64,000 bases of DNA, from the NCBI GenBank assembly GCA_965230765.1, contig CBDDLR010000001.1, forward strand, positions 2,696,515-2,760,514. Reading direction: 5' to 3'. Positions within the stretch are counted from its first letter, which is position 1. Each line of letters opens with the position of its first letter. The notes beneath the pieces are model-generated. The model was not told the DNA's origin and did not search any database. It was given only the letters and a program-made list of their open reading frames with translations. Of the stretch, positions 29,560 to 61,376 are shown piece by piece. The DNA is from Sunxiuqinia sp. Its GTDB lineage: Bacteria; Bacteroidota; Bacteroidia; Bacteroidales; Prolixibacteraceae. Made by a program: the position numbers and the translations under genes.

Positions 29560-29693
29560 GCTGAACGGTTTAGTGCATGTTACTGTGTCGGATTTGGGAG
29601 CGAGTTACTGTCCGCGAGGACATGAACTGCGATGCGAGAATCCGGCGAACGACGATGCACTGCACCCGCTCGGAAATATGTACTTTGTTACCT
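29560..29693 (-). repeat. attC-like site 1 (family C)
   Basis: + strand GCTGAAC(29566)...G(29687)TTACCTTC. Confidence 0.7.
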
Positions 29694-29701
29694 TCTGGTG
29701 T

Positions 29702-31048
29702 TTATTCATTAAGCAATCCAAGCACTTTATTTTCCAATTCTTTTCCACGTAGATTTTTTGCTACGATTATTCCATCAGGATTTACAAGAAAAGTAGTTGG
29801 GTATCCATGAACCCCAAATGTTTCCTTGATTTTATTGGAATCGGTCGAAAGTATTTGAGTCCAGTTAATAGAGTCTTTTTCTATCATCTCTTTAAGAGCT
29901 TTTGATGGGCTATCTCCAACTATTCCCACAATTTCAAATTTGTCTCTATCAGTTTTTTCATAGAGTTCTTTCAAGTTTGGGATTTCTTGTCGACATGGTC
30001 CACACCAAACCGCCCAAAAATCGAGCAAGATATATTTACCTTTCAATTGTTCAGATGATATTTGAGATTCTGTAATAAAATCGCTACCGTTAAAAGAAAA
30101 TGATTTAAATCCAATCTGTGTTGAATACAATTTACTCTTTGGTATTGTCATTTCTTCTAATTCCAAAGTATTGCTATTTAAATTTACACCGACATTCTTA
30201 TATAGCTTTCCATTGATTTCAATGAATTCATTTTTTGCTATTAACTGTTCATGACTGATTTTATCACCTTTGTTTAGGCTATCTGTCAACAAAACAATAT
30301 TTGGGTTTTTAAATGATAAATTGGTAAAACCATTAGAACAAACTGCAATTTTTTTTCCTTCAAAATCAGCTACTGAATGTTGTGGAAAATTACACATAAA
30401 CATATTGTATTGACTCATATGCACGATAAAGAGAGGGACTGTGAGTAACTGTTTTTTGTTGTCAATCAATCTCTCAAATGAAACTTTGATTGAATTACTT
30501 GATGCAATTGAATCTTTATTGATTTTTTCCCTTGGGGAATAATTAAATGGAATGAAACTTTTATCATCACTAAAATCAAGATTGTTATTTGCATCAACTA
30601 TCATGTTTGTTATTCTTGCTGAGTCTTTACCAAAAGCAAATGCTATCTTCGTTTTCAACGGTTCTTTTGATAGTTCAAGGGTATCAGGTTTCCAATCCCA
30701 AGATTTTTGTAATTCTTCATATCTCTCTTGTGTTATGTTTCCAACTAAATAGTTTTGATAAACTGATTGGTAAATATTTGTCTCAATGTCACCAAATTTA
30801 ATGTCAGTCCAATTCTCTGGAGCTCCTGTTACTGACAAATATGTTTTTTTCCATGGATTATTTTCGTCTTCGGAGTATGGAGAAATTCCACCAAGTGCAG
30901 AGTTAAAATAACCATATCCTTGCTGATGAGTTAATGGAAGTTTAATTGTTTTTTCCGTTGAGCAACTATTTAAGATTGTAATACAAATTGCTAATAAGGT
31001 CAATGTTTTTAAATTCATTTTATTGGGTTTAAATAATAATTTTCTCAT
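29702..31048 (-). CDS. TlpA-family disulfide reductase lipoprotein (cassette)
   Basis: LNSC lipobox (alternative start 31018); DFWAVWCGPCR, YPTTFLVNPDG. Confidence 0.85.
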   Translation of the reverse strand: MRKLLFKPNKMNLKTLTLLAICITILNSCSTEKTIKLPLTHQQGYGYFNSALGGISPYSEDENNPWKKTYLSVTGAPENWTDIKFGDIETNIYQSVYQNYLVGNITQERYEELQKSWDWKPDTLELSKEPLKTKIAFAFGKDSARITNMIVDANNNLDFSDDKSFIPFNYSPREKINKDSIASSNSIKVSFERLIDNKKQLLTVPLFIVHMSQYNMFMCNFPQHSVADFEGKKIAVCSNGFTNLSFKNPNIVLLTDSLNKGDKISHEQLIAKNEFIEINGKLYKNVGVNLNSNTLELEEMTIPKSKLYSTQIGFKSFSFNGSDFITESQISSEQLKGKYILLDFWAVWCGPCRQEIPNLKELYEKTDRDKFEIVGIVGDSPSKALKEMIEKDSINWTQILSTDSNKIKETFGVHGYPTTFLVNPDGIIVAKNLRGKELENKVLGLLNE

Positions 31049-31083
31049 TCTGTTTATTATTTGGCAGTGTCGTTTTTACACTT

Positions 31084-31212
31084 GAAGGGTTTGTACATGT
31101 TGTCGGGGCGGATTTTCAATAGAAATCCAGTCAGACCCGCAGGGGAGTAGCCGGAAGGTTTGACTTGTCAAACCGATAAATGCCCCGCCTGCCATATTGC
31201 AATTTGTTACAG
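31084..31212 (-). repeat. attC-like site 2 (family A) with deleted core
   Basis: GAAGG|GTTTGTAC, expected GAAGGTAACGGTTTGTAC; other end G(31206)TTACAGT. Confidence 0.7.
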
Positions 31213-31227
31213 TGCGTTTTTTCATTT

Positions 31228-32073
31228 TTAGTTAGCGTATACTACATTTATCCCATGCCTTTTACTCAAGCTTGCTTGGTCTCCATTACTGCTAAACAAA
31301 TAAATATTCAAATCATATTTATTGAAATGTTCTTTTGATAATTCAAAAATTGTACGAAAGCTGATGTCCATGGAATAGAGAAAAGATAAACTATGCTTGT
31401 CTGGCTCCCAGTGCCTGTCAATTGTTTTCCCTGTTTCATCCACATTTAAATTGAATGGGGGATTTGAGACGATAGTATCCTTTAGTCCAATTGCTTTTAA
31501 TTTTTCGAAAAACTCATTAGCAAACTCCGTTTTTTCTTCTCCATTAAAAATTACACTACCGTATAATAAATCTGTTGGTGTAGGAAATACGTCTTTAATT
31601 GAACATGAAAAATATTGGTTTTCTGGAATCTCCAATGAAACTTTATTTTCACTAATCAAGAAATTTGATTGAATCGAAAAATCAAAAGTTCTAACCGTAA
31701 AAGTATAATCTCCCGATTTAAGAGAATTCTCAGGTATAAAAAAATCTCCGTCTGAAATGCATAGATTATCTGTTTTATTTGGACTTGGAAATACAGGACA
31801 TTTTCCTTCGTCAATTTTGTCAATTAAATAAATATCGATACTTCTCTGTTTATTATCAATTTTGTATTCAAAGATTAATTCATAGAAATTCTCAAAACGT
31901 TGGGCTTCATAAAACTCAAATACAAATCCTCTTCCTTCTTCTCCAAAGATTTTATGATTCCACCACAAATTTAGTCCTTCAGAGCTTAAAAGTGAGTTTC
32001 TATCAAATTCATCTTTCTGACAACCAAATATCAAAACTCCAATTAGGATTAAGCAAATCAATTTTTCGTTCAT
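31228..32073 (-). CDS. Hypothetical lipoprotein (cassette)
   Basis: MNEKLICLILIGVLIFGC lipobox; probable start 32073. Confidence 0.65.
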   Translation of the reverse strand: MNEKLICLILIGVLIFGCQKDEFDRNSLLSSEGLNLWWNHKIFGEEGRGFVFEFYEAQRFENFYELIFEYKIDNKQRSIDIYLIDKIDEGKCPVFPSPNKTDNLCISDGDFFIPENSLKSGDYTFTVRTFDFSIQSNFLISENKVSLEIPENQYFSCSIKDVFPTPTDLLYGSVIFNGEEKTEFANEFFEKLKAIGLKDTIVSNPPFNLNVDETGKTIDRHWEPDKHSLSFLYSMDISFRTIFELSKEHFNKYDLNIYLFSSNGDQASLSKRHGINVVYAN

Positions 32074-32202
32074 AGTTTTTATTTTTTTGATAGATGCTTC
32101 ATTGCTTTTTTGGTTGCTTATTCCCTCAGCATTGAAGCACATTTCTTTTGGATGATAGGGAACGTAAGTTTCCCAGACAAAAGTCAGCTTTAGCTGAATT
32201 TG

Positions 32203-32335
32203 CCATAACGGTCACTTGTAAGTTGTCGGGGCGGATTTCGAAGAGCGTTCCAGTCCGCCAGGACGGAACGATGATGCGAGAGCAGCAGTTGCAGTGCCGC
32301 ACCAGCCCCGCTCTGAAATATGTACTTTGTTATAG
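32203..32335 (-). repeat. attC-like site 3 (family C)
   Basis: CCATAAC(32209)...G(32329)TTATAGCC. Confidence 0.8.
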
Positions 32336-32347
32336 CCAGTAATTTTA

Positions 32348-33070
32348 TCAATTTGGTTTACATCCTATGTTGTTTACTTTCTTAAGTTGATGCAATTTAT
32401 CTAAATTCAATCCTGTCTTTACCAAAGAAAAATTATCCAGATTAAATTCATAGATATTATCAGATTCTTTGTTCTCAACCCATTCTGCAGCGTAGTATTT
32501 CCCTGCATTCTCATACCATTTTGAAAGATAAACTGGTAGCTCTTTTGAATAAATAATTTTACTTGTTTCGAAATCGAAAATTGTTATTCCTGACAAATCA
32601 GAATACCAGTCTGAGATTATAAACCTGTTGTTGTCCGAGATGAAATAATCGCCTCCTGATTCCTTTATTATTTTTCCTTTATTGTCAATTATTATTAATT
32701 GTCCTGAATAGTCACCATATTTTGAACCTATTAAAAAATTGTCATTTGGTTGTCTTTTGTTAAAGCAGATTCCATATGAACTCCCAACAGGTTCAATATT
32801 TTCAAAATACAATTCATCAATTATTTTATTTTTTCTTGTCGTTTGGATTATTGATTTGCAGTTAAAATCATCACCATTAAATTCTTTCCTAAAAACTTGA
32901 GCGATGGTAATTGTCACTGAACCTAAAGCGAAAGTGTGAAATTCTATATTGTATTCTTTGTCAGAATATTGTTTCCCTTTTATTGAAACTCCATTTTTAA
33001 GTTTATCAAGACTTTGTCCGTTTAGTAAAAGTCCGACAAATAGAAAGCTAATTAATAGTGATAGTCTCAT
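32348..33070 (-). CDS. Hypothetical secreted protein (cassette)
   Basis: 240 aa ORF with signal peptide filling the cassette. Confidence 0.65.
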   Translation of the reverse strand: MRLSLLISFLFVGLLLNGQSLDKLKNGVSIKGKQYSDKEYNIEFHTFALGSVTITIAQVFRKEFNGDDFNCKSIIQTTRKNKIIDELYFENIEPVGSSYGICFNKRQPNDNFLIGSKYGDYSGQLIIIDNKGKIIKESGGDYFISDNNRFIISDWYSDLSGITIFDFETSKIIYSKELPVYLSKWYENAGKYYAAEWVENKESDNIYEFNLDNFSLVKTGLNLDKLHQLKKVNNIGCKPN

Positions 33071-33092
33071 CTTTTGCTTGTTTTTTTATTGG

Positions 33093-33224
33093 CTATAACG
33101 GTAAATTGTATGAGTAGTGGCAGATTGCGTGACACTTTCCTGTCAAACCGCTACGTAGTTTGAGCGGGCTACAAACCATGATATTTAGCACCTTACCTGC
33201 CATTACTTATACAAAATGTTGCCA
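33093..33224 (-). repeat. attC-like site 4 (family B)
   Basis: GGCTATAAC(33099)...G(33218)TTGCCAAC. Confidence 0.8.
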
Positions 33225-35194: not shown

Positions 35195-35197
35195 GGC

Positions 35198-35552: not shown

Positions 35553-35684
35553 TGGCAACGGTCACTTGTATGTGGTCGGGCGGGCTTTCGTGCAGAAATC
35601 CAGTCAGACCCGCAGGAAAGTGGGCGAAAGGTCTGACTTGTCAAACCGATAAAAGCCCCGCCTGCCATATACAATTTGTTGTAC
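35553..35684 (-). repeat. attC-like site 5 (family A)
   Basis: GTTGGCAAC(35559)...G(35678)TTGTACAC. Confidence 0.82.
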
Positions 35685-36271: not shown

Positions 36272-36403
36272 TGGTAACGGTAAATTGTATGTGGCGTAGC
36301 GGATTACGTGATTCTTTTCTGTCAAGATAGCATTGAAGTACGGGCGAGTGACAAACCTTAAAATACCCGCAAAACCCGCTATGACATATACAAAATGTTA
36401 CCT
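36272..36403 (-). repeat. attC-like site 6 (family B)
   Basis: GTGGTAAC(36278)...G(36397)TTACCTGC. Confidence 0.8.
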
Positions 36404-36488
36404 GCTGGGTTTAGTCTTTCCATTCATAGGACTTCATAATTTTCAATTTTAGCACTATCCCGATTTTGTTTTTCGGGTCGGCAAAAAA

Positions 36489-36560
36489 GCGATGGAAGAC
36501 AGGCAAGCTCTTTTGCAATTTTTGGTTTGTGCGTCTGCTTGTGCGAATTGCAAATGTGCT
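36489..36560. repeat. Defence-associated 9-25-9 repeat, copy b
   Basis: Arms TTTGCAATT (36512-20) and AATTGCAAA (36546-54), 25 nt spacer. Confidence 0.75.
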
Positions 36561-36616
36561 TGGCTGTGTGGGCTGGCTTAATTTATTAATGTGCAATATG
36601 TGCAATTATTGTGCAA

Positions 36617-37942
36617 TCAACTATTTTTAATAACGTAATAAGCTCCAGCTCCCTTTTGTCCACTACTTTCCAATAATTCTTTATTCACTAACTCAGTAAG
36701 GTCATTACTTGCAGTGTTTCTTGAGCAATCATTTATACTCTGATATTCACTATTCGTAATCTTACCTTTTTCTTTGACGTATTTCAAAGCTTCAATTTGC
36801 CTCGGGTTTAATCCAAGAGATTCAAAATACTCAACGTTGAAATTATCTTTCCTAAACTCCACCCAAAAACCCGACATGTCGTAATAATATTTGGGCTGGG
36901 GAATGCCAAACTGAATACATTCGTTAATAATTTTAATCGTTCCTCTTCCCCAGGATTCGATATACCCACTTCTAAAAAGAGCATTTGCAATGTCCGGATT
37001 GTAGGGTTTTGATGGATGTTTAGTCAACAATTTCTCAATTGTCCAGTTTTCAGGTAACTGTCCCTCATTCCAGAAAATCAACTTGTCGTTATAAACGCTG
37101 ATTTGGATTGGTACACCACCAGAATAATCTTTATGGCAAACAGCATTTAATAGTGCTTCACGAACAGCATTTTTTGGATATTCAAACTTTTCAATCCTGT
37201 TTAAGCCTTCATAGCTAATTGATGATTTGATGTATTTGGAGAAAAGTAAATCCATAGTTTTCTCAACCTGTTCAAAAATATTTCCCGTAATTTCATCCTG
37301 AAATTTCAATTCATCATCGGTCTCGAAATATCCAATTTTAATAAATGCACCAGTAATGTATTTTGTTGGTTTGGGATGAAACAATAGAATTGCAGCTCGT
37401 TTCAGGTAATCATTTTCAATCAACTGCAAATTGTCCGCCAAATCTTCGTCCGTATCTGTTAAAACATCATCTTCAATTCGCTGCGCTTTAACCGCTTTTT
37501 TTCTGAAAAAATCAAAAGTTTCATTCTTTAAATCGGCAATTGAAATATTTGGAACAGGAACACCATCCCACTTTTTTCCTTTGCGCTCCAACATAAATTT
37601 ATCGAGAGATGCTCCTTTTAATTCTTGTTTTGTGCTACCACTCCGATAATGATATTGTCCTTTGTAGTTTACTGGGTTTGGATAAGGTTCTACAATTATT
37701 TCAATAAACTGCTTTTCATTTTCGCCCAATAAATTTATGTCGCAAACAACACCTAAGTTGGTAACAATTTTATTGGGTAGGTTATCCATCAATCTTTTAG
37801 CATTGTCAATGCCAACAACTTCACCTTTGTCGTTTTTGCCGATGTAGATTTTGCCTCCTTGTGCATTTGCAAAACCGCAAATCCATTTAAGGTATTCATC
37901 GCGCCAGCTTTCTTTCCACTCTATGTTTTGACTTTCTGCCAT
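36617..37942 (-). CDS. Schlafen/AlbA_2 + HATPase_c_4 + winged-HTH protein
   Basis: ESQNIEWK, CGFANAQGGKIYIG, VREALLNAVCHKDY, NPDIANALFRSGYIESWGRG, C-terminal HTH. Confidence 0.85.
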   Translation of the reverse strand: MAESQNIEWKESWRDEYLKWICGFANAQGGKIYIGKNDKGEVVGIDNAKRLMDNLPNKIVTNLGVVCDINLLGENEKQFIEIIVEPYPNPVNYKGQYHYRSGSTKQELKGASLDKFMLERKGKKWDGVPVPNISIADLKNETFDFFRKKAVKAQRIEDDVLTDTDEDLADNLQLIENDYLKRAAILLFHPKPTKYITGAFIKIGYFETDDELKFQDEITGNIFEQVEKTMDLLFSKYIKSSISYEGLNRIEKFEYPKNAVREALLNAVCHKDYSGGVPIQISVYNDKLIFWNEGQLPENWTIEKLLTKHPSKPYNPDIANALFRSGYIESWGRGTIKIINECIQFGIPQPKYYYDMSGFWVEFRKDNFNVEYFESLGLNPRQIEALKYVKEKGKITNSEYQSINDCSRNTASNDLTELVNKELLESSGQKGAGAYYVIKNS

Positions 37943-37945
37943 TAA

Positions 37946-39406
37946 TTAACAAACATTAAAAATTTTGGCTCTTTCGTATTCCTTAATATTTGAAATCGCC
38001 TGCCTGTTTTGAATTTTCTCCATTGAGCGAGCTACTTTAGTACTTTCCTTATCGCTAAAACCAAGGAATTTGTTTATTACTTTCAATTCATTCTTGCTTT
38101 TAATATTCATCAAGAAAGCAGTTTCACACATGCTTGAAAAATCGAATGAAGGTTGATTAAACTCTTCAATACCTTGAGATAATAATACTACAGATACTCC
38201 TTTTGAACGGATTTCGCGCAAAATCTTTTCAAGTATTTCTTTTGATTTTTTGTCTTTGAAAACGTTATGAGCTTCATCTATTATTAAAACATACCTCATT
38301 CCTTTCATATCATTTTCAACAACAGAATTTTCCATATTCATGAAAGTGTTGTAAATGTAATTTATAATTAGGAATGCGGCTGTAAACCGAACATTTCGAC
38401 TCAAATCGCCGGATAAACTTAAATAATAGTTTTGATTTAAAAATGAACCATCAGAGTTCGTGTCGAACAAATTAATTTCGCTTAAACCAATTAATATTTC
38501 GGTTAGAGTGCTGGGCTTGTCTCCAGCAATCTCATAAACGTTATTGAGAATTTCTTTTAAAGTTGGGTATTTTCCACTATGATGATTGTCAAAAGCTTGT
38601 TTTGTTGCTTCTTTTAAATGTTGAACCTGAACCTTTCCCAACCCCGCATAATCCGTAATAATATCGACAAATTTATTTATGCCCAATATCTTATTGTTAG
38701 CATTGATATTATCTATAAACGACAGTGGATTAACAGGGAATGGCTTATGCGGCGTATCAATCAAATTTGCTTGTGTATTTCTAAAGAAATTTTTGAATTC
38801 ATTGCTTTCTTTTTCCGATTCGCTAATTCCTTTAAAATCGAGGAAAATGAAGTTTGTTCGGAAATTACTTGCTTCAACGATTCGTTCTAAAAGTCTTTGG
38901 GCAAAATAGGTTTTACCAGAACCGGATTGTCCAGCAACTGCTATGTGAGCATTGCTATACAAGATTGTGTCATTTGGCGTGAAGTAAATATCTTTTCCTT
39001 CATCGTCCTTGCCAACCAGTAATTTCCAAGGATTACAAGACAATGTTTTTTCGATATTTTGACTGTAATTATCAACATGTTCTAATCCGACAATGGCGTT
39101 TTCAAGCTCGGAAATACCACTATCAATACTGTCAATTAGAAAGTCGAATCCTGAATAATTTGCATTGTCCTCAAACAGTTTATTAATGTGTTCCAAGCCG
39201 TGGTCAACATGCATTTTTACGAACTTTCCAATATCTGTATTTGATTTGTGAAAACTATAATGCTGGCAAATTAATGCAATGTAGTAATCTTTGTATTTCC
39301 CAAAAAAAGTATCATCCTTGTAAGATTTCCCTTTTGAATCTTTCAGGTTTTGAGTGATGGAAAAGCTGCTCAAATGAGTATTTATATGTTGGCTGCGCAG
39401 ATTCAT
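37946..39406 (-). CDS. DndE-like domain fused to HerA/FtsK-type ATPase (N-terminus possibly truncated)
   Basis: DSKGKSYKDD...YIALICQHY...MHVDHGLE (DndE-like, from memory); AGQSGSGKT, FLDFKG, IIDEAH. Confidence 0.65.
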   Translation of the reverse strand: MNLRSQHINTHLSSFSITQNLKDSKGKSYKDDTFFGKYKDYYIALICQHYSFHKSNTDIGKFVKMHVDHGLEHINKLFEDNANYSGFDFLIDSIDSGISELENAIVGLEHVDNYSQNIEKTLSCNPWKLLVGKDDEGKDIYFTPNDTILYSNAHIAVAGQSGSGKTYFAQRLLERIVEASNFRTNFIFLDFKGISESEKESNEFKNFFRNTQANLIDTPHKPFPVNPLSFIDNINANNKILGINKFVDIITDYAGLGKVQVQHLKEATKQAFDNHHSGKYPTLKEILNNVYEIAGDKPSTLTEILIGLSEINLFDTNSDGSFLNQNYYLSLSGDLSRNVRFTAAFLIINYIYNTFMNMENSVVENDMKGMRYVLIIDEAHNVFKDKKSKEILEKILREIRSKGVSVVLLSQGIEEFNQPSFDFSSMCETAFLMNIKSKNELKVINKFLGFSDKESTKVARSMEKIQNRQAISNIKEYERAKIFNVC

Positions 39407-40368
39407 CCTTTAAAAATATTAAAGTTATGCCAACGGATATTTTCTACAGAAGGATAAAACTTTTCTTCGGCAGGCAATTGAATTTGTTTTCCTCGAAACT
39501 GAGTTAGTGAATAATCAGTTTTGTTTTCGCTAAATTTTGTTGAAATAAGTACATTAAAATTTTCATCTATTGATAATAAACCTCTGTCAAAAGCTCTGTG
39601 GAGATTGGGACAAAGTGCTAATCCATTTGATATTGTGTCGTTATTACTTTCAGAAAATGGAACAATATGACAAGCATCAATCATTGAAATATTAACTACA
39701 CTGTCAATTCTTAATTCTGAAATACAACATGTGTAATTATATATTTTAGGAATCTCGCGTTTAAAAACATTGCTCCGAATAAATATTTCTTCCTGGTATG
39801 ATTCTTCTTTTAATTCTTTTCTAAGTTCTAAAAGTCTTTTTGAATAAACTTCTGAATCTTCGTTTGCAATTTGATTTTCAATATCATTCAAATATGAATT
39901 ATGTCCGTAATTACCTTTTGTTTCATGAAAGTAAGAATCTAAAACAAATTGTTTTGCAATCTGGTTGTTTTCAGGAATAAGAAGTAATTCAAATAATTCG
40001 TTGTCAATCAATGCATATTTTACGGCTGTTGTGATATTTTGCAGACTTCTCATCGAACTTTTTGATTTTACCCAAATCTCACAACCTTTATTTGGAACAA
40101 GTTTCCAAAACGGTTCTGAATTCATATGATAATAAGGTAAAGCAAAGAGGCATTGATGGTTTGATGTTACCAAACTATTCCAGTTTGATTTGAAAAGTCC
40201 TACAAATTCAGGAGAAATGGAAATCTTATTGTTTGAGAACAGACCGTTTCTAATTCCTTGAAAAAGGCTCAATAACAAAATCGGTTTATGAGGAGCACCT
40301 CCATTTTTATAGTCTCGCCTGAGTTTCTCAAAACGGTTCAAATAATATTTTAAATTTTTATTCTTCAA
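39403..40368 (-). CDS. SBD-HNH endonuclease (putative phosphorothioate-dependent type IV restriction enzyme)
   Basis: APHKPILLL and LPYYHM (sulfur-binding-domain-like); ACHIVPF...NGLALCPNLHRAFDRG (HNH); TTG start. Confidence 0.75.
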   Translation of the reverse strand: MKNKNLKYYLNRFEKLRRDYKNGGAPHKPILLLSLFQGIRNGLFSNNKISISPEFVGLFKSNWNSLVTSNHQCLFALPYYHMNSEPFWKLVPNKGCEIWVKSKSSMRSLQNITTAVKYALIDNELFELLLIPENNQIAKQFVLDSYFHETKGNYGHNSYLNDIENQIANEDSEVYSKRLLELRKELKEESYQEEIFIRSNVFKREIPKIYNYTCCISELRIDSVVNISMIDACHIVPFSESNNDTISNGLALCPNLHRAFDRGLLSIDENFNVLISTKFSENKTDYSLTQFRGKQIQLPAEEKFYPSVENIRWHNFNIFKG

Positions 40369-40377
40369 TTTTGTTAT

Positions 40378-41577
40378 TTAAGCTGCTTTCAACATTACAT
40401 CTTCTTTATCCTGACGTTCAGTTTTATTCTTCATATCAAGTTCGATGTTAAACACTTCGTTATATATTTGGGATACTTTTTTGTCAAAAAATAAATCTCT
40501 TGTCCAAATTACCTGAATTGCAATAAGTTCTTGATTGGTAATTAATTCAACGTGAGGTTTGTCTTCTTGAATAATTTTTTGTGTTTCAAGCACTCGCTTC
40601 AAAATATTGGCTCTGTACGTTGGTTTGTACGTGCCCATTTCATTGATTGCTTTGGTGCCATCACGCCGAGTAGGCATTCTAATTTCAATATTATTTCTTT
40701 CCGATTCCAAATCATCTCGTAATTTCAACAATGGTTTAAGCCAATCAAAACCATTGTTAATTAGTGCAGCCATCGACTTATCAACTTTAACAACAGTACA
40801 AGTCCAGCAACCAAATCGGCTCTGTCCGCACGATGAATGTTCTTTATTTGTAACTAAAGTTGGACATTCATAATCGTCTGAACTTGCATCTGCATAAATT
40901 TGAAAAAGCTCAGAATTGTCAGCCCCCCAAGGAGAAGGGTGAGAATTTATGATTCCCCAAATTTCTTCAAGCATCAAATGTTTAATTGGAGAATAAACAA
41001 AAGTGTTTGCTTGTAACGAATGTTTTGTAAGCCGTTTCCCACGAATTTCGTGCTTTTTAATAGACTTAGCTCTTGAAGCACTTTCCGCAGAACGTGTCCC
41101 AATTAAAATGATTGCTTCTCCATTTTCAGCAACTTGCTCATTAATGTATCGTGATGTTGGTTTAATTTTTAATTTGTCGGTACACCAACGGAAAGCATTA
41201 TTCGGAACCGGGTAACCTTTTCCAATAATGTTTACCCAAAATGAATCTTCTAACCTTGGAATCGTTTTTCTGACAAATATTGGCAAATCATTTTCCCTTG
41301 CTGCTTTGCTAATTTTATTTAGAACTCGTTCGGTATATTCTACGATTATTGGATTTTCAACTAAAGTGTCGTTGCATACTACATAAACTGGTCTTTTGAG
41401 TTGAAAAGGATTTGGCATTTTTCTGATTTTTAAAAGTGCCTCCCAAACCAGAGTTAATAATACTGTCGAATCTTTTCCTCCACTAAAACCTATTATCCAA
41501 GGTTTTTCTGTGTCGTCAGCATAACAGTATTGGTCGATTATTTCGTTTATTATATGTTCAATTCTTTTATTTCTCAT
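40378..41577 (-). CDS. dndC: DNA phosphorothioation sulfurtransferase DndC (PAPS-reductase fold), C-terminus possibly shortened
   Basis: WIIGFSGGKDST, NDTLVENP, FRWCTDKLKIKPT, SCGQSRFGCWTCTVVKVDKSM. Confidence 0.85.
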   Translation of the reverse strand: MRNKRIEHIINEIIDQYCYADDTEKPWIIGFSGGKDSTVLLTLVWEALLKIRKMPNPFQLKRPVYVVCNDTLVENPIIVEYTERVLNKISKAARENDLPIFVRKTIPRLEDSFWVNIIGKGYPVPNNAFRWCTDKLKIKPTSRYINEQVAENGEAIILIGTRSAESASRAKSIKKHEIRGKRLTKHSLQANTFVYSPIKHLMLEEIWGIINSHPSPWGADNSELFQIYADASSDDYECPTLVTNKEHSSCGQSRFGCWTCTVVKVDKSMAALINNGFDWLKPLLKLRDDLESERNNIEIRMPTRRDGTKAINEMGTYKPTYRANILKRVLETQKIIQEDKPHVELITNQELIAIQVIWTRDLFFDKKVSQIYNEVFNIELDMKNKTERQDKEDVMLKAA

Positions 41578-41621
41578 TTATTTCATCTTGAAAACCCAAA
41601 AATAACAAATTATGCCATGGA

Positions 41622-41694
41622 GCGATGGCAAAATTGCAGCTCTTTTGCAAAGCTTTGGATTGTGTGCCGGCTTGTGCGGCTTTGCAAATGTGCT
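41622..41694. repeat. Defence-associated 9-25-9 repeat, copy c
   Basis: Arms TTTGCAAAGC (41644-53) and GCTTTGCAAA (41679-88), 25 nt spacer. Confidence 0.75.
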
Positions 41695-41839
41695 GCAATG
41701 TAGGCGGGATTTCCCAAACTGCCCCATAGGGCAGAAGCGCGTGGGCAAAACAAAATCTTCATCGAAGCTGTCAATTTTCTTTTTTTATTGGTTTAGTTAG
41801 TCTCTTATTTCTGGTTCTTTTTCTTCAATTTAACCTTGC

Positions 41840-41972
41840 AGGTAACGTTCAGTTGTATGTGGTCTGGCGGGATTTCGTGCAGAAATCCTGTCAGACCGGT
41901 AGGAGAGTAGCCGGAAGGTTTGACGTGTCAAACCGATAAGTACCCCGCCTGCCATATTACAATTTGTTATGT
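41840..41972 (-). repeat. attC-like site 7 (family A)
   Basis: GCAGGTAAC(41846)...G(41966)TTATGTGC. Confidence 0.85.
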
Positions 41973-42420: not shown

Positions 42421-42551
42421 ACATAACGGCCGCGGATATGTTGCGGCGGGGTTTTATTTGCACTAAAGTTTCATATATTTTTTAAAATTATGTATTGTAT
42501 TGTTAAAATCAAATAGCACCAAACACCCCGCTGAAATATAAAATGTTAGGC
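42421..42551 (-). repeat. attC-like site 8 (family D, AT-rich loop)
   Basis: GCACATAAC(42427)...G(42545)TTAGGCAAA. Confidence 0.82.
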
Positions 42552-43659: not shown

Positions 43660-43790
43660 GCCTAACGTTCAGTTGTATGTGGTCGGGCGGGATTTCGGAC
43701 TGCGTCTGTATCCCCCGTTACCGAAATTGAAGCGGGAGACTATGCTTCGCATACCACTGAAACCCTTATGAATTATACACATTGTTGTGC
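43660..43790 (-). repeat. attC-like site 9 (hybrid: family A left part, unrelated right part)
   Basis: TTTGCCTAAC(43666)...G(43784)TTGTGCGTA. Confidence 0.75.
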
Positions 43791-44547: not shown

Positions 44548-44680
44548 GCACAACGGCCGCGGATATGTTGCGGCGGGGTTTTATTTGCACTAAAGTTTCA
44601 TATATTTTTTAAAATTATGTATTGTATTGTTAAAATCAAATAGCACCAAACACCCCGCTGAAATATAAACGATGTTATGG
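44548..44680 (-). repeat. attC-like site 10 (family D)
   Basis: TACGCACAAC(44554)...G(44674)TTATGGTT. Confidence 0.82.
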
Positions 44681-45294
44681 TTAGGCAGGGCAATACGGGC
44701 GTGCTCAGTCATTGTAACAAAACCAGCCTGGCAGTTTGTTTGCCCCTCCCAAGTGATGTGCCAAGTTTGCAAAACCAGTAGTTGCTTACCGCTGTCCCTG
44801 TTTGGTGTTGTTTGCCTTTCCTTAATTTACATATCTTTAAGCAACAATACCTGTCCCAGGTTACCCGTTCAGGTAGGGGCAAACATGGCGCAGGAGTTGA
44901 TTAACCGCAAACAAGGTGACAGGCTGTAGATGCTTTTGGGCGTGATTTTATGAAAATTGCTTCCCAATGACCACTAGTCAGGTAGATGTATTACCTGAAA
45001 CTATGTTCCACTTTCACAAGTGCCATTTACAAAAACCAAGCTTTTAAAGAACGCTTTTTTTAATAAACTGAAATGCTGAATTTTGCAGCTTGTGATTTTC
45101 CGGTCAGAAAACACGGACACGTACCAACTTGTCAGGTAACCTTTCCTCTGCGAATCCCTCTCAATCAAACTCTGGTGGGTTGGGGTGTCAATTTGAACAC
45201 TTGGTTTTAAAAATAATTATTTCAAAGAAGAATTGGAAGTGTCCAATTTAGAGAATCGTTCTAAATAATCAGTTTTTTAGAAATAAACCATAAC
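44675..45294. other. ORF-less cassette cargo X' (X body plus the module shared with Y)
   Basis: No credible ORF; near-identical to 59198-59600 over ~400 bp, and to the last ~200 bp of Y. Confidence 0.7.
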
Positions 45295-45420
45295 GTTCAG
45301 TTGTATGTGGTCGGGCGGGATTTCGAAGAGAAATCCAGTCAGACCGGTAGGGGAGTAGCCGGAAGGTTTGACCAGTCAAACCGATAAATGCCCCGCCTGC
45401 CATATTACAATTTGTTATGG
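45288..45420 (-). repeat. attC-like site 11 (family A)
   Basis: AACCATAAC(45294)...G(45414)TTATGGTTT. Confidence 0.85.
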
Positions 45421-45877
45421 TTTGTTTTTTTGTTATCATCTTTTTCAAGTACCGATGAAAAGGAAACGTTCCTTTCAAACGGTGAGCAGTTTTCTGGTTT
45501 TTACAAACCTTTCAAAAAACTGCTTAAACTACACTTTGTTTCAAACTTCGTTTCTTCACTCCCGTCAAAAAGAATGGGGTGCGAAGGGTGTTTATAATGC
45601 AGTGTCAAGTTTTTGCGTTCTTGTCAGATAAGGAAAACAAGCGGACTTGTCAAACAGCAAGACTTTATCAACTTGTAACATTCTGGTCAATAAGCACGGA
45701 CACGTACCAACTTGTCAGGTAACCTTTCCTCTGCGAATCCCTCTCAATCAAACTCTGGTGGGTTGGGGTGTCAATTTGAACACTTGGTTTTAAAAATAAT
45801 TATTTCAAAGAAGAATCGGAAGTGTCCAATTTAGAGAATCGTTCTAAATAATCAGTTTTTTATAAATAAACCATAAC
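45415..45877. other. ORF-less cassette cargo Y, copy 1
   Basis: Close copy at 57361-57825; no credible ORF. Confidence 0.7.
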
Positions 45878-46002
45878 GGTTTGTGCATGTTGTCGTAGCG
45901 GATTTCGGAGCGCGTTCCAGTCCGGTAGGACTGAACGATGATGCGAGAGCCGCAGTTGGCACACCACCAAATCCCGCTATGCAATATGGCACGTTGTTAT
46001 AA
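45871..46002 (-). repeat. attC-like site 12 (family C)
   Basis: AAACCATAAC(45877)...G(45996)TTATAACAC. Confidence 0.82.
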
Positions 46003-49024: not shown

Positions 49025-49156
49025 TTATAACGGTCAGTTGTATGTGGTCGGGCGGGATTTCGTGCAGAAATCCTGTCAGACCGGTAGGAGAGTAGCCAGA
49101 AGGTTTGACTTGTCAAACCGCTAAAACCCCCGCCTGCCATATACAATTTGTTGTGC
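49025..49156 (-). repeat. attC-like site 13 (family A)
   Basis: GTGTTATAAC(49031)...G(49150)TTGTGCAAC. Confidence 0.85.
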
Positions 49157-50368: not shown

Positions 50369-50500
50369 GCACAACGGTGGCGGTATGAAATGTTGCGCAT
50401 TTCGAAGCACAAACTTATCAGCCCACTAAGTCGTTGATTAAATGTTATTTCGTTTAAATTTAGCACAATCTGCGCAATGTTTTATGACCGCGTGTTAGGC
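50369..50500 (-). repeat. attC-like site 14 (family E, unique)
   Basis: GTTGCACAAC(50375)...G(50494)TTAGGCATA; arms GCGGTATGAAATGTTGCGCA / TGCGCAATGTTTTATGACCGC. Confidence 0.8.
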
Positions 50501-52430: not shown

Positions 52431-52562
52431 GCCTAACGGTTGGTGTAAGTTTTTGTAGCGGATTCAGAGCGATCGTCAGCGTCTGTTAGGACGGGACGTT
52501 CGAAAAAGAATTCGCTGCCAGGGCTGCACCAACCCCGCTATAAAATTTACACTTTGTTACCG
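52431..52562 (-). repeat. attC-like site 15 (family C)
   Basis: TATGCCTAAC(52437)...G(52556)TTACCGCCA. Confidence 0.82.
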
Positions 52563-53448: not shown

Positions 53449-53581
53449 CGGTAACGGTTGGTGTAAGTTTTTGTAGCGGATTCAAGGCGATCGTCAGCGT
53501 CCGGTAGGACGGGACGGTCAATAGAGAATCCGCCGCCAGCGATGCCACCAAAACCGCTATTAAATTTACACTGTGTTGTGT
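53449..53581 (-). repeat. attC-like site 16 (family C)
   Basis: TGGCGGTAAC(53455)...G(53575)TTGTGTTTA. Confidence 0.82.
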
Positions 53582-54256: not shown

Positions 54257-54388
54257 ACACAACGTTCAGTTGTATGTGGTCGGGCGGGATTTCGTGCAGA
54301 AATCCAGTCAGACCCGCAGGAAAGTGGGCGCTAGGTCTGACTTGTCAGACCGCCAAGCACCCCGCCTGCCATATACAATTTGTTAACG
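54257..54388 (-). repeat. attC-like site 17 (family A)
   Basis: TAAACACAAC(54263)...G(54382)TTAACGCC. Confidence 0.85.
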
Positions 54389-55601: not shown

Positions 55602-55733
55602 CGTTAACGTTCAGTTGTATGTGGTCGGGCGGGATTTCGTGCAGAAATCCAGTCAGACCGGTAGGAGAGTAGCCGGAAGGTTTGACTTGTTAAACCGATA
55701 AATGCCCCGCCTGCCATATACAATTTGTTAGCG
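55602..55733 (-). repeat. attC-like site 18 (family A)
   Basis: GGCGTTAAC(55608)...G(55727)TTAGCGCG. Confidence 0.85.
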
Positions 55734-56445: not shown

Positions 56446-56577
56446 CGCTAACGGTCACTTGTATGTGGTCGGGCGGGATTTCGAAGAGAAATCCTGTCAG
56501 ACCCGCAGGAAAGTGGGTGAAAGATCTGACTTGTCAGACCGCCAAGCACCCCGCCTGCCATATACAATTTGTTACCA
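56446..56577 (-). repeat. attC-like site 19 (family A)
   Basis: CGCGCTAAC(56452)...G(56571)TTACCAGTA. Confidence 0.85.
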
Positions 56578-57217: not shown

Positions 57218-57233
57218 GTCTTTTTATAATTAC

Positions 57234-57366
57234 TGGTAACGTTCAGTTGTATGTGGTCGGGCGGGATTTCGTGCAGAAATCCTGTCAGACCGGTAGGAGA
57301 GTAGCTGGAAGGTTTGACATGTCAAACCGATAAATGCCCCGCCTGCCATATTACAATTTGTTATGG
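57234..57366 (-). repeat. attC-like site 20 (family A)
   Basis: TACTGGTAAC(57240)...G(57360)TTATGGTTT. Confidence 0.85.
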
Positions 57367-57825
57367 TTTGTTTTTTCGTTATCATCTTTTTCAAGTACCG
57401 ATGAAATGGGAACGTACCTTTCAAACGGTGAGCAGCTTTCTGGTTTTTAAATATTTTTCAAAAAGCTGCTTAAACTACACTTTGTTTCAAACTTCGTTCC
57501 TTCACTCCCGTCAAAAAAGATTGGGGTGCGAAGGATGTTTATAATGCAGTGTCAAGTTTTTGCTTTCTTGTCAGACCAGGAAAACAAGCGGACTGGTCAA
57601 AAAGCAAAACTTTATCAACTTGTAACATTCCAGTCAGAAAAGCACGGACACGTACCAACTTGTCAGGTAACCTTTCCTCTGCGAATCCCTCTCAATCAAA
57701 CTCTGGTGGGTTGGGGTGTCAATTTGAACACTTGGTTTTAAAAATAATTATTTCAAAGAAGAATCGGAAGTGTCCAATTTAGAGAATCGTTCTAAATAAT
57801 CAGTTTTTTAGAAATAAACCATAAC
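57361..57825. other. ORF-less cassette cargo Y, copy 2
   Basis: Close copy of 45415-45877. Confidence 0.7.
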
Positions 57826-57951
57826 GGTCACTTGTAAGTTGTCGTTGCGGATTATGGTGAGCGTCAGCGTCCGGTAGGACCTGACTGCGATACGAGAATC
57901 CGGCGAACAACGCTGCACTACACCCGCAATGCAATTTACAATTTGTTATGT
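57819..57951 (-). repeat. attC-like site 21 (family C)
   Basis: AAACCATAAC(57825)...G(57945)TTATGTAGC. Confidence 0.82.
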
Positions 57952-57968
57952 AGCGATTTTTTATGTTT

Positions 57969-59051
57969 CTATTCCATATATCCATTTAAATATAAAACTG
58001 TTACAGTAATAAGTGGTATTATAAATGTCAAAATCCATACGAAAAGGAACAAAACTTTTCCTCCTATTTTTATGTCTTTAGTCGGTTGTCTTTGAACCAC
58101 TTGTTTCATTACATCAATTATGCGATTCTCAGCAGGAATTGGGCGATATCGTTTAGGTTCCACCATATTTGAAATAACTTTAATATTTACCGCTATTTCA
58201 TCTCGAAGTGTCCAATATTCCTCATTTGATAACTCGTTAAAGTCTCTGTCAATGTTAAATCCTTTATTTTTGATATAAGTTTTGAAATTCCTCATTTCTG
58301 TCTGGTTTTTTATTTGCATGAAAAGAAAAAATGGAATTACCAATAAAATGTAAGATTCCAGTTTTAATGCAATCAGACTTATGATGATTATCGAAATCCA
58401 GACGAATACAATATTTATCTTATCGTTGTTTTGGAAAAACATGTTTTTTATAATTTGTCCTCCGTCTAAAGGCAATACTGGCAAAAGATTAAATAAATTT
58501 AGAAATATAAATATTGCCCCAGTTTTCCATAAAAAATCGTTTTCGTTTACCAAGCTTAGGGCTATTAAACCAGAGCCTATTAATACTCCTGGCAATGGTC
58601 CTGCAAGTGAGTTTATTGTTTTTTGTTTTTGAGAAATTTCATCTTTTTGTCCAGATGCAAGTGCTCCGATTAATGGTATGAAAAAAATACTCAAGTCTTT
58701 GTATTTGTAAAATCTCATTGCCAAGAAATGACCGAGTTCATGAATTAAAATGACTCCTGTAAGTATGAGTATATATTGTAAGTCCCATTTAAAAATGAAG
58801 TAAAAGGCTGCGATAAATAATACAAAACTGATTAAGGATTTTTTTGTCGATTGTTTCCTTTCGTCTGGAATTGGTTTTTCTGGGAACTCAGGTTCAACAT
58901 TAAAAGATTGATTTTTCTTTCTTTTCTTTATTTCGTTTTCGGCTTCCAATAATGCATCACTTTCCAAACTGTCAGGATTTTCTTTCAGAATTTCCTCCAG
59001 TTGAGCATCTGTTTTCATGTCCATTATTTTCTCCCAATTATATGCTGCCAT
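57969..59051 (-). CDS. Site-2 protease (M50) family metalloprotease (cassette)
   Basis: IHELGH, LAGPLPG, NLFNLLPVLPLDGG. Confidence 0.88.
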   Translation of the reverse strand: MAAYNWEKIMDMKTDAQLEEILKENPDSLESDALLEAENEIKKRKKNQSFNVEPEFPEKPIPDERKQSTKKSLISFVLFIAAFYFIFKWDLQYILILTGVILIHELGHFLAMRFYKYKDLSIFFIPLIGALASGQKDEISQKQKTINSLAGPLPGVLIGSGLIALSLVNENDFLWKTGAIFIFLNLFNLLPVLPLDGGQIIKNMFFQNNDKINIVFVWISIIIISLIALKLESYILLVIPFFLFMQIKNQTEMRNFKTYIKNKGFNIDRDFNELSNEEYWTLRDEIAVNIKVISNMVEPKRYRPIPAENRIIDVMKQVVQRQPTKDIKIGGKVLFLFVWILTFIIPLITVTVLYLNGYME

Positions 59052-59070
59052 GTTCTTCTTTTAAATTGCT

Positions 59071-59203
59071 ACATAACGGCCGCGGATATGTTGCGGCGGG
59101 GTTTTATTTGCACTAAAGTTTCATATATTTTTTAAAATTATGTATTGTATTGTTAAAATCAAATAGCACCAAACACCCCGCTGAAATATAAACGATGTTA
59201 TGG
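59071..59203 (-). repeat. attC-like site 22 (family D, same as site 10)
   Basis: GCTACATAAC(59077)...G(59197)TTATGGTTA. Confidence 0.82.
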
Positions 59204-59610
59204 TTAGGCAGGGCAATACGGGCGTGCTCAGTCATTGTAACAAAACCAGCCTGGCAGTTTGTTTGCCCCTCCCAAGTGATGTGCCAAGTTTGCAAAACCA
59301 GTTGTTGCTTACCGCTGTCCCTGTTTGGTGTTGTTTGCCTTTCCTTAATTTACATATCTTTAAGCAACAATACCTGTCCCAGGTTACCCGTTCAGGTAGG
59401 GGCAAACATGGCGCAGGAGTTGATTAACCGCAAACAAGGTGACAGGCTGTAGATGCTTTTGGGCGTGATTTTATGAAAATTGCTTTCCAATGACCACTAG
59501 TCAGGTAGATGTATTACCTGAAACTATGTTCCACTTTCACAAGTGCCATTTACAAAAACCAAGCTTTTAAAGAACGCTTTTTTTAATAAACTGAAATGCT
59601 TAACCATAAC
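59198..59610. other. ORF-less cassette cargo X
   Basis: Near-identical to 44675-45078; flanks GTTATGGTTA / TAACCATAAC. Confidence 0.7.
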
Positions 59611-59735
59611 GGTCACTTGTATGTGGTCGGGCGGGATTTCGTGCAGAAATCCAGTCAGACCGGTAGGAGAGTAGCCGGAAGGTTTGACTTGTCAAACCGA
59701 TAAAAGCCCCGCCTGCCATATACAATTTGTTAACC
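59604..59735 (-). repeat. attC-like site 23 (family A)
   Basis: TAACCATAAC(59610)...G(59729)TTAACCAC. Confidence 0.85.
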
Positions 59736-59743
59736 ACTGATTT

Positions 59744-60358
59744 TTAATATTTTTCTTTTCTTTCAAATTTGTCGTTTTGTGTCAAGTAATGAATTGCAAT
59801 TATTAGCCTGACTTTTGGGTCTTTGATGTTATAATTTTTATAATTCTTAATTAAGTCTCCTACCATTGTAGGTGAAATATCTCCTGCGATTTCGAGAGAG
59901 TTGTAATAATTGTTAATTACACTGTCTTGTTGCCCTAATGACTTTAAAAACTCCACGTATTTGCCTTGCCGATTTAATTGAATGTATTTCAATGAGTCAT
60001 TCGAGTCAGGTTTAGTCAACCAGCTAATTGTCCAAATATTATCAAATGTCTTTTTGTCGAGTTGATTATACATTCCCTTTTGGTCGTTGAAATTAATCGA
60101 TAGTTTAAAGTCTGACATTTTTTCAATGTCGGAGTTTTGCAGAAAAAAGTCTGTGTACACTTTTTCCAAATTATCTTGTTTATCACTCTCCGTCAAACCA
60201 ATACTTTTGTCAAAGAAACTTTGGATTTTTGTTAAGTCATTAATTTCAGTTGTATTAAACGACTCTTTGATTGTTAGGTCATTTGATAAGTCGTTTTGTC
60301 TTTGAGTAGTGCAACTGAGTGCAATAATCATGGTTGAAATCAGAAATAAATTTTTCAT
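59744..60358 (-). CDS. Hypothetical lipoprotein (cassette)
   Basis: MKNLFLISTMIIALSC lipobox. Confidence 0.65.
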   Translation of the reverse strand: MKNLFLISTMIIALSCTTQRQNDLSNDLTIKESFNTTEINDLTKIQSFFDKSIGLTESDKQDNLEKVYTDFFLQNSDIEKMSDFKLSINFNDQKGMYNQLDKKTFDNIWTISWLTKPDSNDSLKYIQLNRQGKYVEFLKSLGQQDSVINNYYNSLEIAGDISPTMVGDLIKNYKNYNIKDPKVRLIIAIHYLTQNDKFERKEKY

Positions 60359-60380
60359 TTGGCGTCAATTTTAAATTTGT

Positions 60381-60513
60381 GGTTAACGGTCACTTGTAAG
60401 TTGTCGTTGCGGATTTCGGTGAGCGTCAGCGTCCGGTAGGACCTGACTGCGATGCGAGAATCCGGCGAACAACACACCACGAACCCCGCAATGCAATTTA
60501 CAATTTGTTAGCA
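60381..60513 (-). repeat. attC-like site 24 (family C)
   Basis: GTGGTTAAC(60387)...G(60507)TTAGCAATT. Confidence 0.82.
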
Positions 60514-60520
60514 ATTGTTT

Positions 60521-61234
60521 TTATTTAATTTGTTGTCCACCTATATATTTTACGGAATCGAGTTTTATAAACTCAAATATCCCATTGTTGTATATTTGAA
60601 TTTTTGCAAATAATGTGTCAATCTCAAAACTGGTTGAATCATCGTTTAAACTTTCGTCATTGAATTGAGCCTTGTTAATTTTGAAAATACTATCATTTTC
60701 CCAGTAACCTGTGTCATTTTCACTCCAACCACCGTCACCTCCGGTAAGCCCAAAAACAGCTATGTTTATTGGTGTTAAATTCTCTTTACTCAATGAAACA
60801 CCATAAACAGTATTGCAACAATATTCATTTGCATGTATGAATGAAAAGAAATGAAAGTTTGAAAATTCCTTATGTTGATAAAACCTGAATTCTTCTGGGT
60901 ATTTTACTCCTAGTTTATCTGTCCAGCCAAATTTTATATCTTGCTCTTTTACATACTTCTCAAGGAACTCAACAGGAATTTTTTGGAGATCGTAAATATT
61001 TAAGTTCTCAATATTAAATGAATCACTCATTAGTATCGTTGAGTTTTTTATATAGTTCCAGTCGTATGTTTTACTTGAATTATTTGGCTTTTTTTTCACA
61101 ACAATCTCAAATCCATCTTCAACGGGAATAATTTCTCCTGTTCTTATCGTTTCGCCATTTAGTTTAATCGATTTATTCTGAGTATAACCAATAAGAAAAG
61201 AACCTAATAATAGTAATGTCAAAATAATTTTCAT
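60521..61234 (-). CDS. Hypothetical secreted protein (cassette)
   Basis: Probable start MKIILTLLLL at 61234; the track's upstream extension lies inside the attC. Confidence 0.6.
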   Translation of the reverse strand: MKIILTLLLLGSFLIGYTQNKSIKLNGETIRTGEIIPVEDGFEIVVKKKPNNSSKTYDWNYIKNSTILMSDSFNIENLNIYDLQKIPVEFLEKYVKEQDIKFGWTDKLGVKYPEEFRFYQHKEFSNFHFFSFIHANEYCCNTVYGVSLSKENLTPINIAVFGLTGGDGGWSENDTGYWENDSIFKINKAQFNDESLNDDSTSFEIDTLFAKIQIYNNGIFEFIKLDSVKYIGGQQIK

Positions 61235-61254
61235 ACTTCTGTTTTTAAAATAAT

Positions 61255-61376
61255 TGCTAACGGTTGGTACATGTTGCGGAGCGGATTTCGGAGTGATTTT
61301 CCGTCCGATAGGATGGAAAATTGATGCGAGAGCCGCAGTTACAAACCGCACCACCCCCGCTCTGAAAATGTTGTGT
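61255..61376 (-). repeat. attC-like site 25 (family C, about 10 nt short)
   Basis: AATTGCTAAC(61261)...G(61370)TTGTGTGCC. Confidence 0.65.

Follow-up and report, generated by a model that had tools for sequence, protein, structure and literature searches.

What holds the length of a long series of attC-like sites constant, and which recombinase acts on them? The question is raised by a 64,000-nt stretch of the genome of Sunxiuqinia sp. (Bacteroidota; Prolixibacteraceae; assembly GCA_965230765.1, contig CBDDLR010000001.1, positions 2,696,515 to 2,760,514 of the forward strand; hereafter the window). In this window, direct-repeat and open reading frame (ORF) scans revealed repeats of ~125 nt between minus-strand ORFs from 29.5 kb to the window end. 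It is quite probable that these repeats are the attC equivalents of an integron-like cassette system that is widespread in Bacteroidota and has a non-IntI recombinase and a site grammar of its own.

The genome comprises 4.06 Mb in two contigs (C1 and C2), the window being C1:2696515-2760514. Coordinates are window positions unless prefixed with C1 or C2 (genome contigs), L (sub-stretches) or G (other genomes).

One type of site in a large cassette array

Sites were located with a covariance model (R1) built from 56 sites, in which the outer helices alone were retained. RNAalifold, applied to a plain MAFFT alignment, recovered just 7 pairs with the arms misaligned; it was replaced by a column-pair dynamic programme, combined with a hand-set outer structure. 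The R1 search identified 25 attC-like sites in the window, spanning 29564-61372, with E-values as low as 1e-33 and scores of ~120 bits on the plus strand versus ~10 bits on the minus strand. The AT-rich family of sites was missed by iterated nhmmer and recovered by the covariance model. An Rfam scan of the window gave no family match; Rfam holds no attC family.

Of the 25 sites, 23 are intact, with a length of 123-126 nt when both AAC and GTT are counted. The distance from the C of AAC to the G of GTT is 119-122 nt in all 23, within one base of counting of the 118-121 nt given in the initial annotation, and the two exceptions named there are the same: site 2 has lost its AAC core and site 25 is 114 nt long. 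The sites do range from GC-rich to AT-rich, as had been described (GC content 0.34-0.55).

The array had been taken to be bounded by 29560-61376, but it actually continues to the end of C1 (C1:2726078-2891044; L009-L015). Its 139 sites (C1:2726078-2890163, median spacing 736 nt) extend over ~165 kb, and the window holds the distal 32 kb of this array of at least 165 kb. In the window the cassettes occupy 29690-64000, with the ORFs on the minus strand and a site at the 3' end of each, as seen from the ORF list, the site inventory and the test of the cassette unit described below. A second array of 17 sites lies at C2:1086770-1110147 (~23 kb). Genome-wide there are 156 distinct sites, 144 of which are 122-126 nt long (43 of 124 nt and 78 of 125 nt).

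Alignment of 56 representative sites required few indels and gave 15 invariant and 11 near-invariant columns, with a mean column identity of 64%. Clustering at 70% identity separated ~10 clusters, all equal in length. The sites had been assigned to unrelated families; they are instead one site type with a shared scaffold, and it is the central region in which they differ.

Hairpin geometry and strand bias

Read along the window plus strand, a site consists of AAC, G, 4-5 unpaired nt, the first arm of a stem, the variable terminal structure (VTS; the stretch between the conserved helices), the second arm, 2 unpaired nt, T and GTT. AAC and GTT are invariant, and the G after AAC forms a G·T pair with the T before GTT in 86 of 86 sites. 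The stem has 18-19 nt on the 5' arm and 17-19 nt on the 3' arm, and 93.7% of its cells are paired.

Pairing is maintained by compensatory changes, which were seen in 15 of the 17 stem pairs within this genome and in 14 of 17 in other genera. The observed covariation was reached by none of 500 shuffles, and pairing dropped to 31-61%, from 94%, once the partner column was slid by 1-3 positions. At stem pairs 7 and 12, 83-84 of 86 sites have G·T, with neighbouring pairs covarying freely. Together with the core-extending pair these make three G·T pairs, which are kept in 73-77 of 77 sites from five other genera.

When the invariant core-extending G·T is treated as paired, 236 of 238 sites from six genera have an unpaired spacer of 2 nt beside GTT versus 4-5 nt beside AAC. 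The asymmetry of 6 versus 3 nt reported earlier is the same feature counted with this G·T unpaired. In canonical attC sites each spacer arm has 5-6 nt, and the extrahelical bases G16 and T23/24 are on the L'' arm, opposite the bottom-strand AAC (PMC5027507). The sites do therefore depart from the symmetric canonical spacer, as had been claimed, and with the surplus bases located on the AAC arm the asymmetry is both larger and opposite in direction. An extra bulged T occurs on the AAC arm in families A and C, and another family is bulge-free; no conserved bulge was found on the GTT arm among the folded sites.

Both strands of 115 sites were folded. The plus strand, which is complementary to the ORFs, was the more stable in 104 of them, with a mean of -23.3 kcal/mol versus -20.6 kcal/mol for the minus strand. 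This average advantage of 2.7 kcal/mol can be set beside the published difference between attC strands of 2.12 kcal/mol. The better folding of the plus strand accords with the wobbles, as G·T pairs become A·C mismatches on the complementary strand.

Cassette unit and crossover

Many cassettes are repeated within the array, and all-against-all comparison showed that blocks of homology begin at AAC and stop just past the next AAC. Cassettes with homologous contents gave 438 pairs, in which the left site, at the ORF 3' end, had a median identity of 0.98 and the opposite (right) site 0.57; the 3' site was the more alike in 402 pairs and the opposite site in 30. The core flanks that bound one cassette are mutually complementary (GTTAACGCC ... 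GGCGTTAAC). From the co-inheritance of the left site and the AAC-bounded homology, it follows that the mobile unit is an ORF plus its downstream site and that exchange takes place at AAC (G|TT on the coding strand). The plus strand is thus the counterpart of the integron 'bottom strand'. Both the cassette unit and the side of the crossover match those of the canonical integron cassette.

Two families of repeated cassettes, with 22 and 20 copies at ~91-96% identity, are scattered through the C1 array and have no long ORFs. Examples of copy-rich cassettes in the window are 44552-45291, 45292-45874 and 59075-59607, and one of the families carries an AT-rich site.

A recombinase without the IntI insertion

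None of the proteins encoded by the genome scores up to the IntI cut-off, and no integrase was found just past the window or at the contig ends. The best candidate is a 379-aa protein (L016:5423-6562; C2:1083423-1084562) encoded directly upstream of the C2 array and co-oriented with its cassettes. An attI-like junction, taG|TTAGCGGC, is located ~87 nt past its stop codon (attI region L016:6565-6660) and agrees with GCCGCTAAC at the first cassette's own site. Separate XerC/D-like genes are present elsewhere in the genome.

In Vibrio IntI, the IntI-specific insertion holds the flipped-out bases. Against the IntI model (TIGR02249) the 379-aa protein scored 202 bits (cut-off 265), in two pieces that leave model positions 180-239 unmatched. 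Alignment to VchIntIA (PDB 2A3V) likewise gave two blocks, 12-179 and 243-318, with ~21 residues replacing the ~63 of IntI (180-242), whereas archaeal XerA aligns to the recombinase without a break. The IntI-defining insertion is therefore absent, and an AlphaFold2 model has no extra helix in the corresponding region. The protein also falls below the cut-offs of NF040815 (XerA/'integron integrase'; 213.8 bits, cut-off 220), NF011946 (120.6 bits, cut-off 435) and the XerC and XerD models (~187 bits, cut-offs > 329). The IntI-specific additional domain, around patch III, has been treated as defining (10.1101/2022.02.06.479319), and the literature views the insertion as both defining and essential (10.1101/2022.02.06.479319; PMC8138268).

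Two other features of the protein deserve mention. Its C-terminal tail (…HV…G.KNPLD) is IntI-like. Residues 1-78 are confidently predicted to form an α/β domain (predicted local distance difference test (pLDDT) score about 86) joined by a disordered linker to the Xer-like core; this domain has no Pfam match. A fold search with the whole model, which did not isolate the N-terminal domain, returned XerA (4A8E, 5HXY), followed by IntI4, XerH and full-length lambda-type integrases.

At the end of C1, the final 262 nt (L015:13783-14044) are unlike the attI region of C2.

Distribution in Bacteroidota

Sites matching R1 are present in 132 of 151 genomes (34 of 36 genera) at the level of the family, in 101 of 151 genomes of the order and in 70 of 151 genomes of the phylum. 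An ortholog of the recombinase (E ≤ 1e-70) was detected in 65 of the 151 order genomes, about 60 of which also have sites, and canonical IntI above its cut-off in just two. With the missing insertion, this bears out the earlier suggestion of a distinct recombinase clade. Orthologs at 52-65% identity occur in Draconibacterium, Mangrovibacterium, Maribellus, Mariniphaga, Marinilabilia, Carboxylicivirga and relatives.

The linkage of recombinase and array is conserved, as in five out of five complete genomes from five other genera the ortholog heads an array and is co-oriented with it. In one of these (G035) the recombinase is at 2.331 Mb and the sites are at 1.96-2.32 Mb (~350 kb); in another (G088) the sites are at 556-687 kb and the recombinase, with an in-frame TAG, at 708-709 kb; the same arrangement is seen in G106, G038 and G045. 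Other families of the order have the same layout (G255, ~170 kb; G176, G266, G222 and G239).

Elsewhere in Bacteroidota the range of site lengths is narrow rather than broad, among the sites that R1, which is biased towards its own length, can detect. Full-length R1 matches are almost all 133-140 nt with 12 flanking nt included. Of 78 sites read in detail in five other genera, 70 are 121-126 nt and seven 182-187 nt long.

Surveys with IntegronFinder have found almost no integrons in Bacteroidetes (PMC9024848). Full-text literature searches that paired integrons with these genera, or 'integron-like' cassettes with Bacteroidetes, gave no description of the system.

Judged from their best-scoring sites only, the arrays of relatives extend over ~350 kb (G035:C1:1962522-2331711), 170 kb (G255:C1:1872930-2043506) and 150 kb (G088:C1:556224-709630), and the first of these would be among the largest cassette arrays known. 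Orthologs bearing stop codons are those at G088:C1:708509-709630 and G222:C17:59333-60454 and those of G207, G214, G243, G153 and G225. The stop codons suggest either frequent inactivation or a recoding or regulatory feature.

What sets the length of the sites

The constancy of length is most striking in the VTS, which measures 72.9 ± 0.74 nt in 172 distinct main-class sequences, taken from 238 sites in six genera. About half of VTS pairs have an identity of ≤ 0.55, random 73-mers having 0.49 ± 0.03, and in 85% of the low-identity pairs the lengths differ by ≤ 1 nt. The claim that the sites share little internal sequence at a fixed length is thus true of the VTS, but not of the whole site. Across 18 clusters of exactly 73 nt a few positions keep a common register (ATTtcg at 1-6, TC at 20-21, cac at 66-68 and C at 73). 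Predicted VTS topologies vary between families.

There is also a rare second class of sites. Beyond the 144 main-class sites, the genome has five of 182-188 nt, two of 136 nt, one of 168 nt, one of 114 nt and three with a degraded core. A 12-nt internal duplication accounts for the extra length of both 136-nt sites. The 182-188-nt sites (L012:6580-6774, L012:13814-14008, L013:1622-1815, L014:16427-16621 and L017:7167-7366; also in L033-L036) have the ends of the main class and an extra hairpin of ~60 nt in the middle, with a 10-bp stem of the GCCAATTCGT/ACGAATTGGC type and an AT-rich loop, and the class recurs in other genera. Site length is therefore a very sharp mode accompanied by a rare, discrete class of ~183 nt, not an absolute rule. 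The proposed ruler-like constraint stands insofar as VTS size is held despite random-level identity; a linear ruler, however, is too strong a description given the recurrent long class. As that class tolerates one extra hairpin, folded geometry is more likely to be measured than linear distance.

These properties suggest how the sites may be used. The plus strand would be recombined as a folded single strand by the 379-aa recombinase. The stem accepts any sequence that pairs, except for the G·T wobbles kept at pairs 7 and 12, and is topped by a branched central region of ~73 nt. The strand-marking role of the classical extrahelical bases may have passed to the surplus unpaired bases and the three G·T pairs. 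Selection would then act on the folded architecture required by the enzyme and not on sequence, and the VTS would keep its size through the architecture of the protein-DNA complex, in which the N-terminal domain may take part.

A more specific version of this proposal is possible but is advanced only tentatively. In it, Bacteroidota have their own phylum-wide lineage of integrons, with arrays of up to ~350 kb, an insertion-free recombinase and a different hairpin grammar, and length is fixed by an N-terminal contact. The N-terminal domain would touch the stem top or the VTS (GCGGATT..., or TC at VTS 20-21), like an arm-binding domain, and this contact would set ~124 nt, or ~183 nt where there is one extra hairpin.

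It is rather unlikely that the sites are attC equivalents whose length is not selected by the enzyme, but is a by-product of a templated origin or of swaps between modules of equal length, followed by drift through substitution only. Hybrid sites such as site 9 imply that parts are indeed swapped between sites, the two classes (~124 and ~183 nt) are discrete with no continuum between them, and the family-specific predicted VTS topologies argue against a single required shape. However, a spread of ± 0.7 nt over 172 distinct VTSs, phylum-wide and with substitutions saturated, would be hard to sustain without selection against indels, to judge from general indel-to-substitution ratios. The short VTS motifs in fixed register also speak against such a by-product.

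A scan for AAC...GTT hairpins of any length, made independently of a model, was too unspecific, as a control region gave 290 matches. Its peaks at 73, 80, 93 and 116 nt, considered as a hidden class of shorter sites, proved to be pieces of repeated cassettes. With the R1 filters off, a search of 40 kb added one further site only, of normal length, and detected none in the long gaps of the array. The gaps are therefore multi-gene cassettes.

Relation to known integrons and recombinases

The superintegron of Vibrio cholerae (V. cholerae repeat (VCR) attC sites; VchIntIA, PDB 2A3V) is similar in many respects. It too carries chromosomal arrays of very great size, in which most cassettes have a single gene and look promoterless, each being followed by an imperfect palindrome of ~120-130 nt with AAC/GTT cores and a branched VTS; it shares the G|TT crossover, the bottom strand's better folding and the homogeneity of site length within an array. 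In contrast, the recombinase described here lacks the IntI insertion, has an extra N-terminal domain and is encoded co-directionally with the cassettes. Instead of about 5-6 nt per arm, the sites have a spacer of 4-5 versus 2 nt whose surplus is on the AAC arm, and three invariant G·T wobbles stand in place of conserved extrahelical G/T on the opposite arm. VCRs are about 90% identical to each other, whereas here the VTS is free in sequence and fixed in length.

It is very unlikely that this is an ordinary sedentary chromosomal integron, or a cluster of attC sites that has no integron-integrase (CALIN), whose uniform length is the usual homogeneity, whose geometry is normal and whose recombinase is a slightly degenerate IntI. 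Its cassettes do follow the same logic as those of integrons and one scaffold is common to the sites, but VTS identity at the level of random sequence with no change of length is unlike what is seen in the about 90% identical VCRs. The initial annotation had stressed how widely classical attC sites vary in length; the mode is indeed sharp, yet homogeneity is normal in sedentary chromosomal integrons and comparison with mobile integrons exaggerates the oddity. Taxon-conserved attC structure and co-evolution of IntI with attC have been published (PMC8352920). Against a normal geometry, the spacer is 4-5 versus 2 nt where 5-6 nt per arm is usual, and the surplus is on the AAC arm and not on the opposite one. 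In favour of a degenerate IntI are the IntI-like tail of the recombinase and its 202 bits on the IntI model, and a published subgroup of 'integron-like' tyrosine recombinases has some members without a conserved insertion (PMC8138268). Nevertheless, the insertion is missing here and the curated cut-off is not reached. An ordinary integron is also hard to reconcile with surveys in which Bacteroidetes are near-empty (PMC9024848), as 70 of the 151 phylum genomes sampled have this type of site.

The 'inverted-integrase' integrons of Treponema denticola and relatives and the archaeal integrons resemble the present system in that the integrase is co-directional with the cassettes, and in archaeal integrons attI is immediately downstream of intI (10.1101/2022.02.06.479319). 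Their integrases retain the IntI-specific domain, unlike the enzyme described here (10.1101/2022.02.06.479319). CALINs are comparable to the array in the window, which has no recombinase gene on its assembled contig; they differ in that this contig ends inside the array and a second array with a recombinase is present in the same genome.

XerA, XerC and XerD also have no insertion in the catalytic domain, and XerA structures (4A8E, 5HXY) are the best matches in sequence and fold to the recombinase core. Xer recombinases act on a single double-stranded dif near the terminus, whereas here 156 sites are predicted to fold and are arranged in arrays. The enzyme is below the XerA cut-off, has the IntI-like tail and the added N-terminal domain, and is linked to cassette arrays. 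Xer/dif dimer resolution does not fit the 156 array sites beside the gene, the sub-cut-off Xer scores and the separate XerC/D-like genes. What distinguishes the system is the combination of an insertion-free recombinase, a reversed and larger spacer asymmetry, G·T wobbles as conserved non-Watson-Crick features and a VTS of fixed size and free sequence.

Repeats of a non-recombining kind, such as repetitive extragenic palindromic (REP) or bacterial interspersed mosaic element (BIME)-like elements, terminators or miniature transposons, would also form intergenic hairpins at ORF 3' ends with solo copies elsewhere in the genome, but this is scarcely credible given the complementary core flanks of single cassettes, identical cassettes at many array positions with homology stopping exactly at AAC, a tyrosine recombinase heading arrays in many genera and the lack of an Rfam match.

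Several observations count against an integron-like system with its own enzyme and site grammar. The 165-kb array has no adjoining assembled recombinase, the sole recombinase being beside the 23-kb C2 array; C1 ends inside the large array, so the missing recombinase may be an effect of assembly. In ~41 genomes of the order there are sites but no ortholog at E ≤ 1e-70, and several orthologs contain in-frame stop codons, some of them heading large arrays. Length is not absolute, given the ~183-nt class and the 136- and 168-nt sites. In addition, a covariance search favours its own length, so that sites of very different architecture could escape it, and alignments fitted to a model lean towards the structure of that model.

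Implications for the definition of integrons

The working definition of an integron relies on the IntI-specific domain and on an attC model for which Proteobacterial sites were the training set, and Bacteroidota thus look near-empty. Here the same cassette logic operates without the IntI domain and with a different site asymmetry in about half of the phylum genomes that were sampled, in arrays that rival or exceed the superintegrons of Vibrio. The system is a natural experiment on what a tyrosine recombinase that reads single strands needs: complementarity of the stem without sequence, G·T at three fixed pairs, a spacer of 2 nt on one side and a central region held in size to within one nucleotide while its sequence drifts to randomness. 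It opens the questions of how a strand is chosen without the classical extrahelical bases and of what gauges VTS size. A very large and unexplored pool of cassettes, defence genes included, also becomes accessible to systematic mining.

Sites and cassettes of the window

All 25 sites were matched by R1 on the plus strand. Site 1 (29564-29689, 126 nt, 86.8 bits) is the distal last site of the array. The degenerate site 2 (31079-31214, 58.7 bits) reads AAGGG where the AAC core is gone, and has a near-identical copy at C2:1108493-1108628. Site 4 (33097-33220, 124 nt) has an unbulged stem with G·T wobbles at pairs 7 and 12. Family A is represented by site 5 (35557-35680, 124 nt), with its bulged T on the AAC-side arm, and by sites 11 (45292-45416, 125 nt), 13 (49029-49152, 124 nt), 17 (54261-54384, 124 nt), 18 (55606-55729, 124 nt), 19 (56450-56573, 124 nt), 20 (57238-57362, 125 nt) and 23 (59608-59731, 124 nt). 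Sites 21 (57823-57947) and 24 (60385-60509), both of 125 nt, belong to family C. The AT-rich family comprises site 8 (42425-42547, 123 nt, GC 0.35), site 10 (44552-44676, 125 nt) and site 22 (59075-59199, 125 nt), and site 14 (50373-50496, 124 nt, GC 0.40) is of a divergent family. Site 9 (43664-43786, 123 nt) is an apparent hybrid, with the left arm of family A and a different right half. Sites of 124 nt are also found at 36276-36399 (site 6), 45875-45998 (site 12) and 52435-52558 (site 15), and sites of 125 nt at 32207-32331 (site 3), 41844-41968 (site 7) and 53453-53577 (site 16). Site 25 (61259-61372, 114 nt) has a shortened right arm.

Two long cassettes, of 5.4 kb between sites 6 and 7 (36405-41838) and of 6.4 kb (L009:8288-14672), have no internal site even with filters off, and in each several genes travel as a single cassette. 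The 5.4-kb cassette had been labelled a Dnd-like locus in the initial annotation. Past site 25, one cassette of ~3 kb is made up of a gene of the Eco57I/N6-methylase family (503 aa) and an ORF of 304 aa without a Pfam match (61493-63912), the next site being just outside the window at C1:2760952.

Solo sites and small clusters are present outside the arrays on C1 (34638, 374482, 2028319, 2232255 and 2383052-2383831) and C2 (136371, 282437-285745, 611072-612058 and 662592). Some have degraded cores, and they look like remnants of the CALIN kind or points of secondary insertion.

An inverted segmental duplication of ~50 kb relates window positions 1-32200 (C1:2672352-2728717) to C2:1107504-1157440 at ~98% identity, with one stretch at 88%. 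Since the flanking chromosome and the two final sites of each array are included in it, the C1 and C2 arrays have distal ends copied from one locus; the duplication could be real or could reflect strain heterogeneity in the assembly. Both contigs also begin with the same repeat of 3.9-4.7 kb, inverted and 99.9% identical (C2:1-3891 versus C1:1-3890 and C1:349577-354291), which is probably an rRNA operon that broke the assembly.

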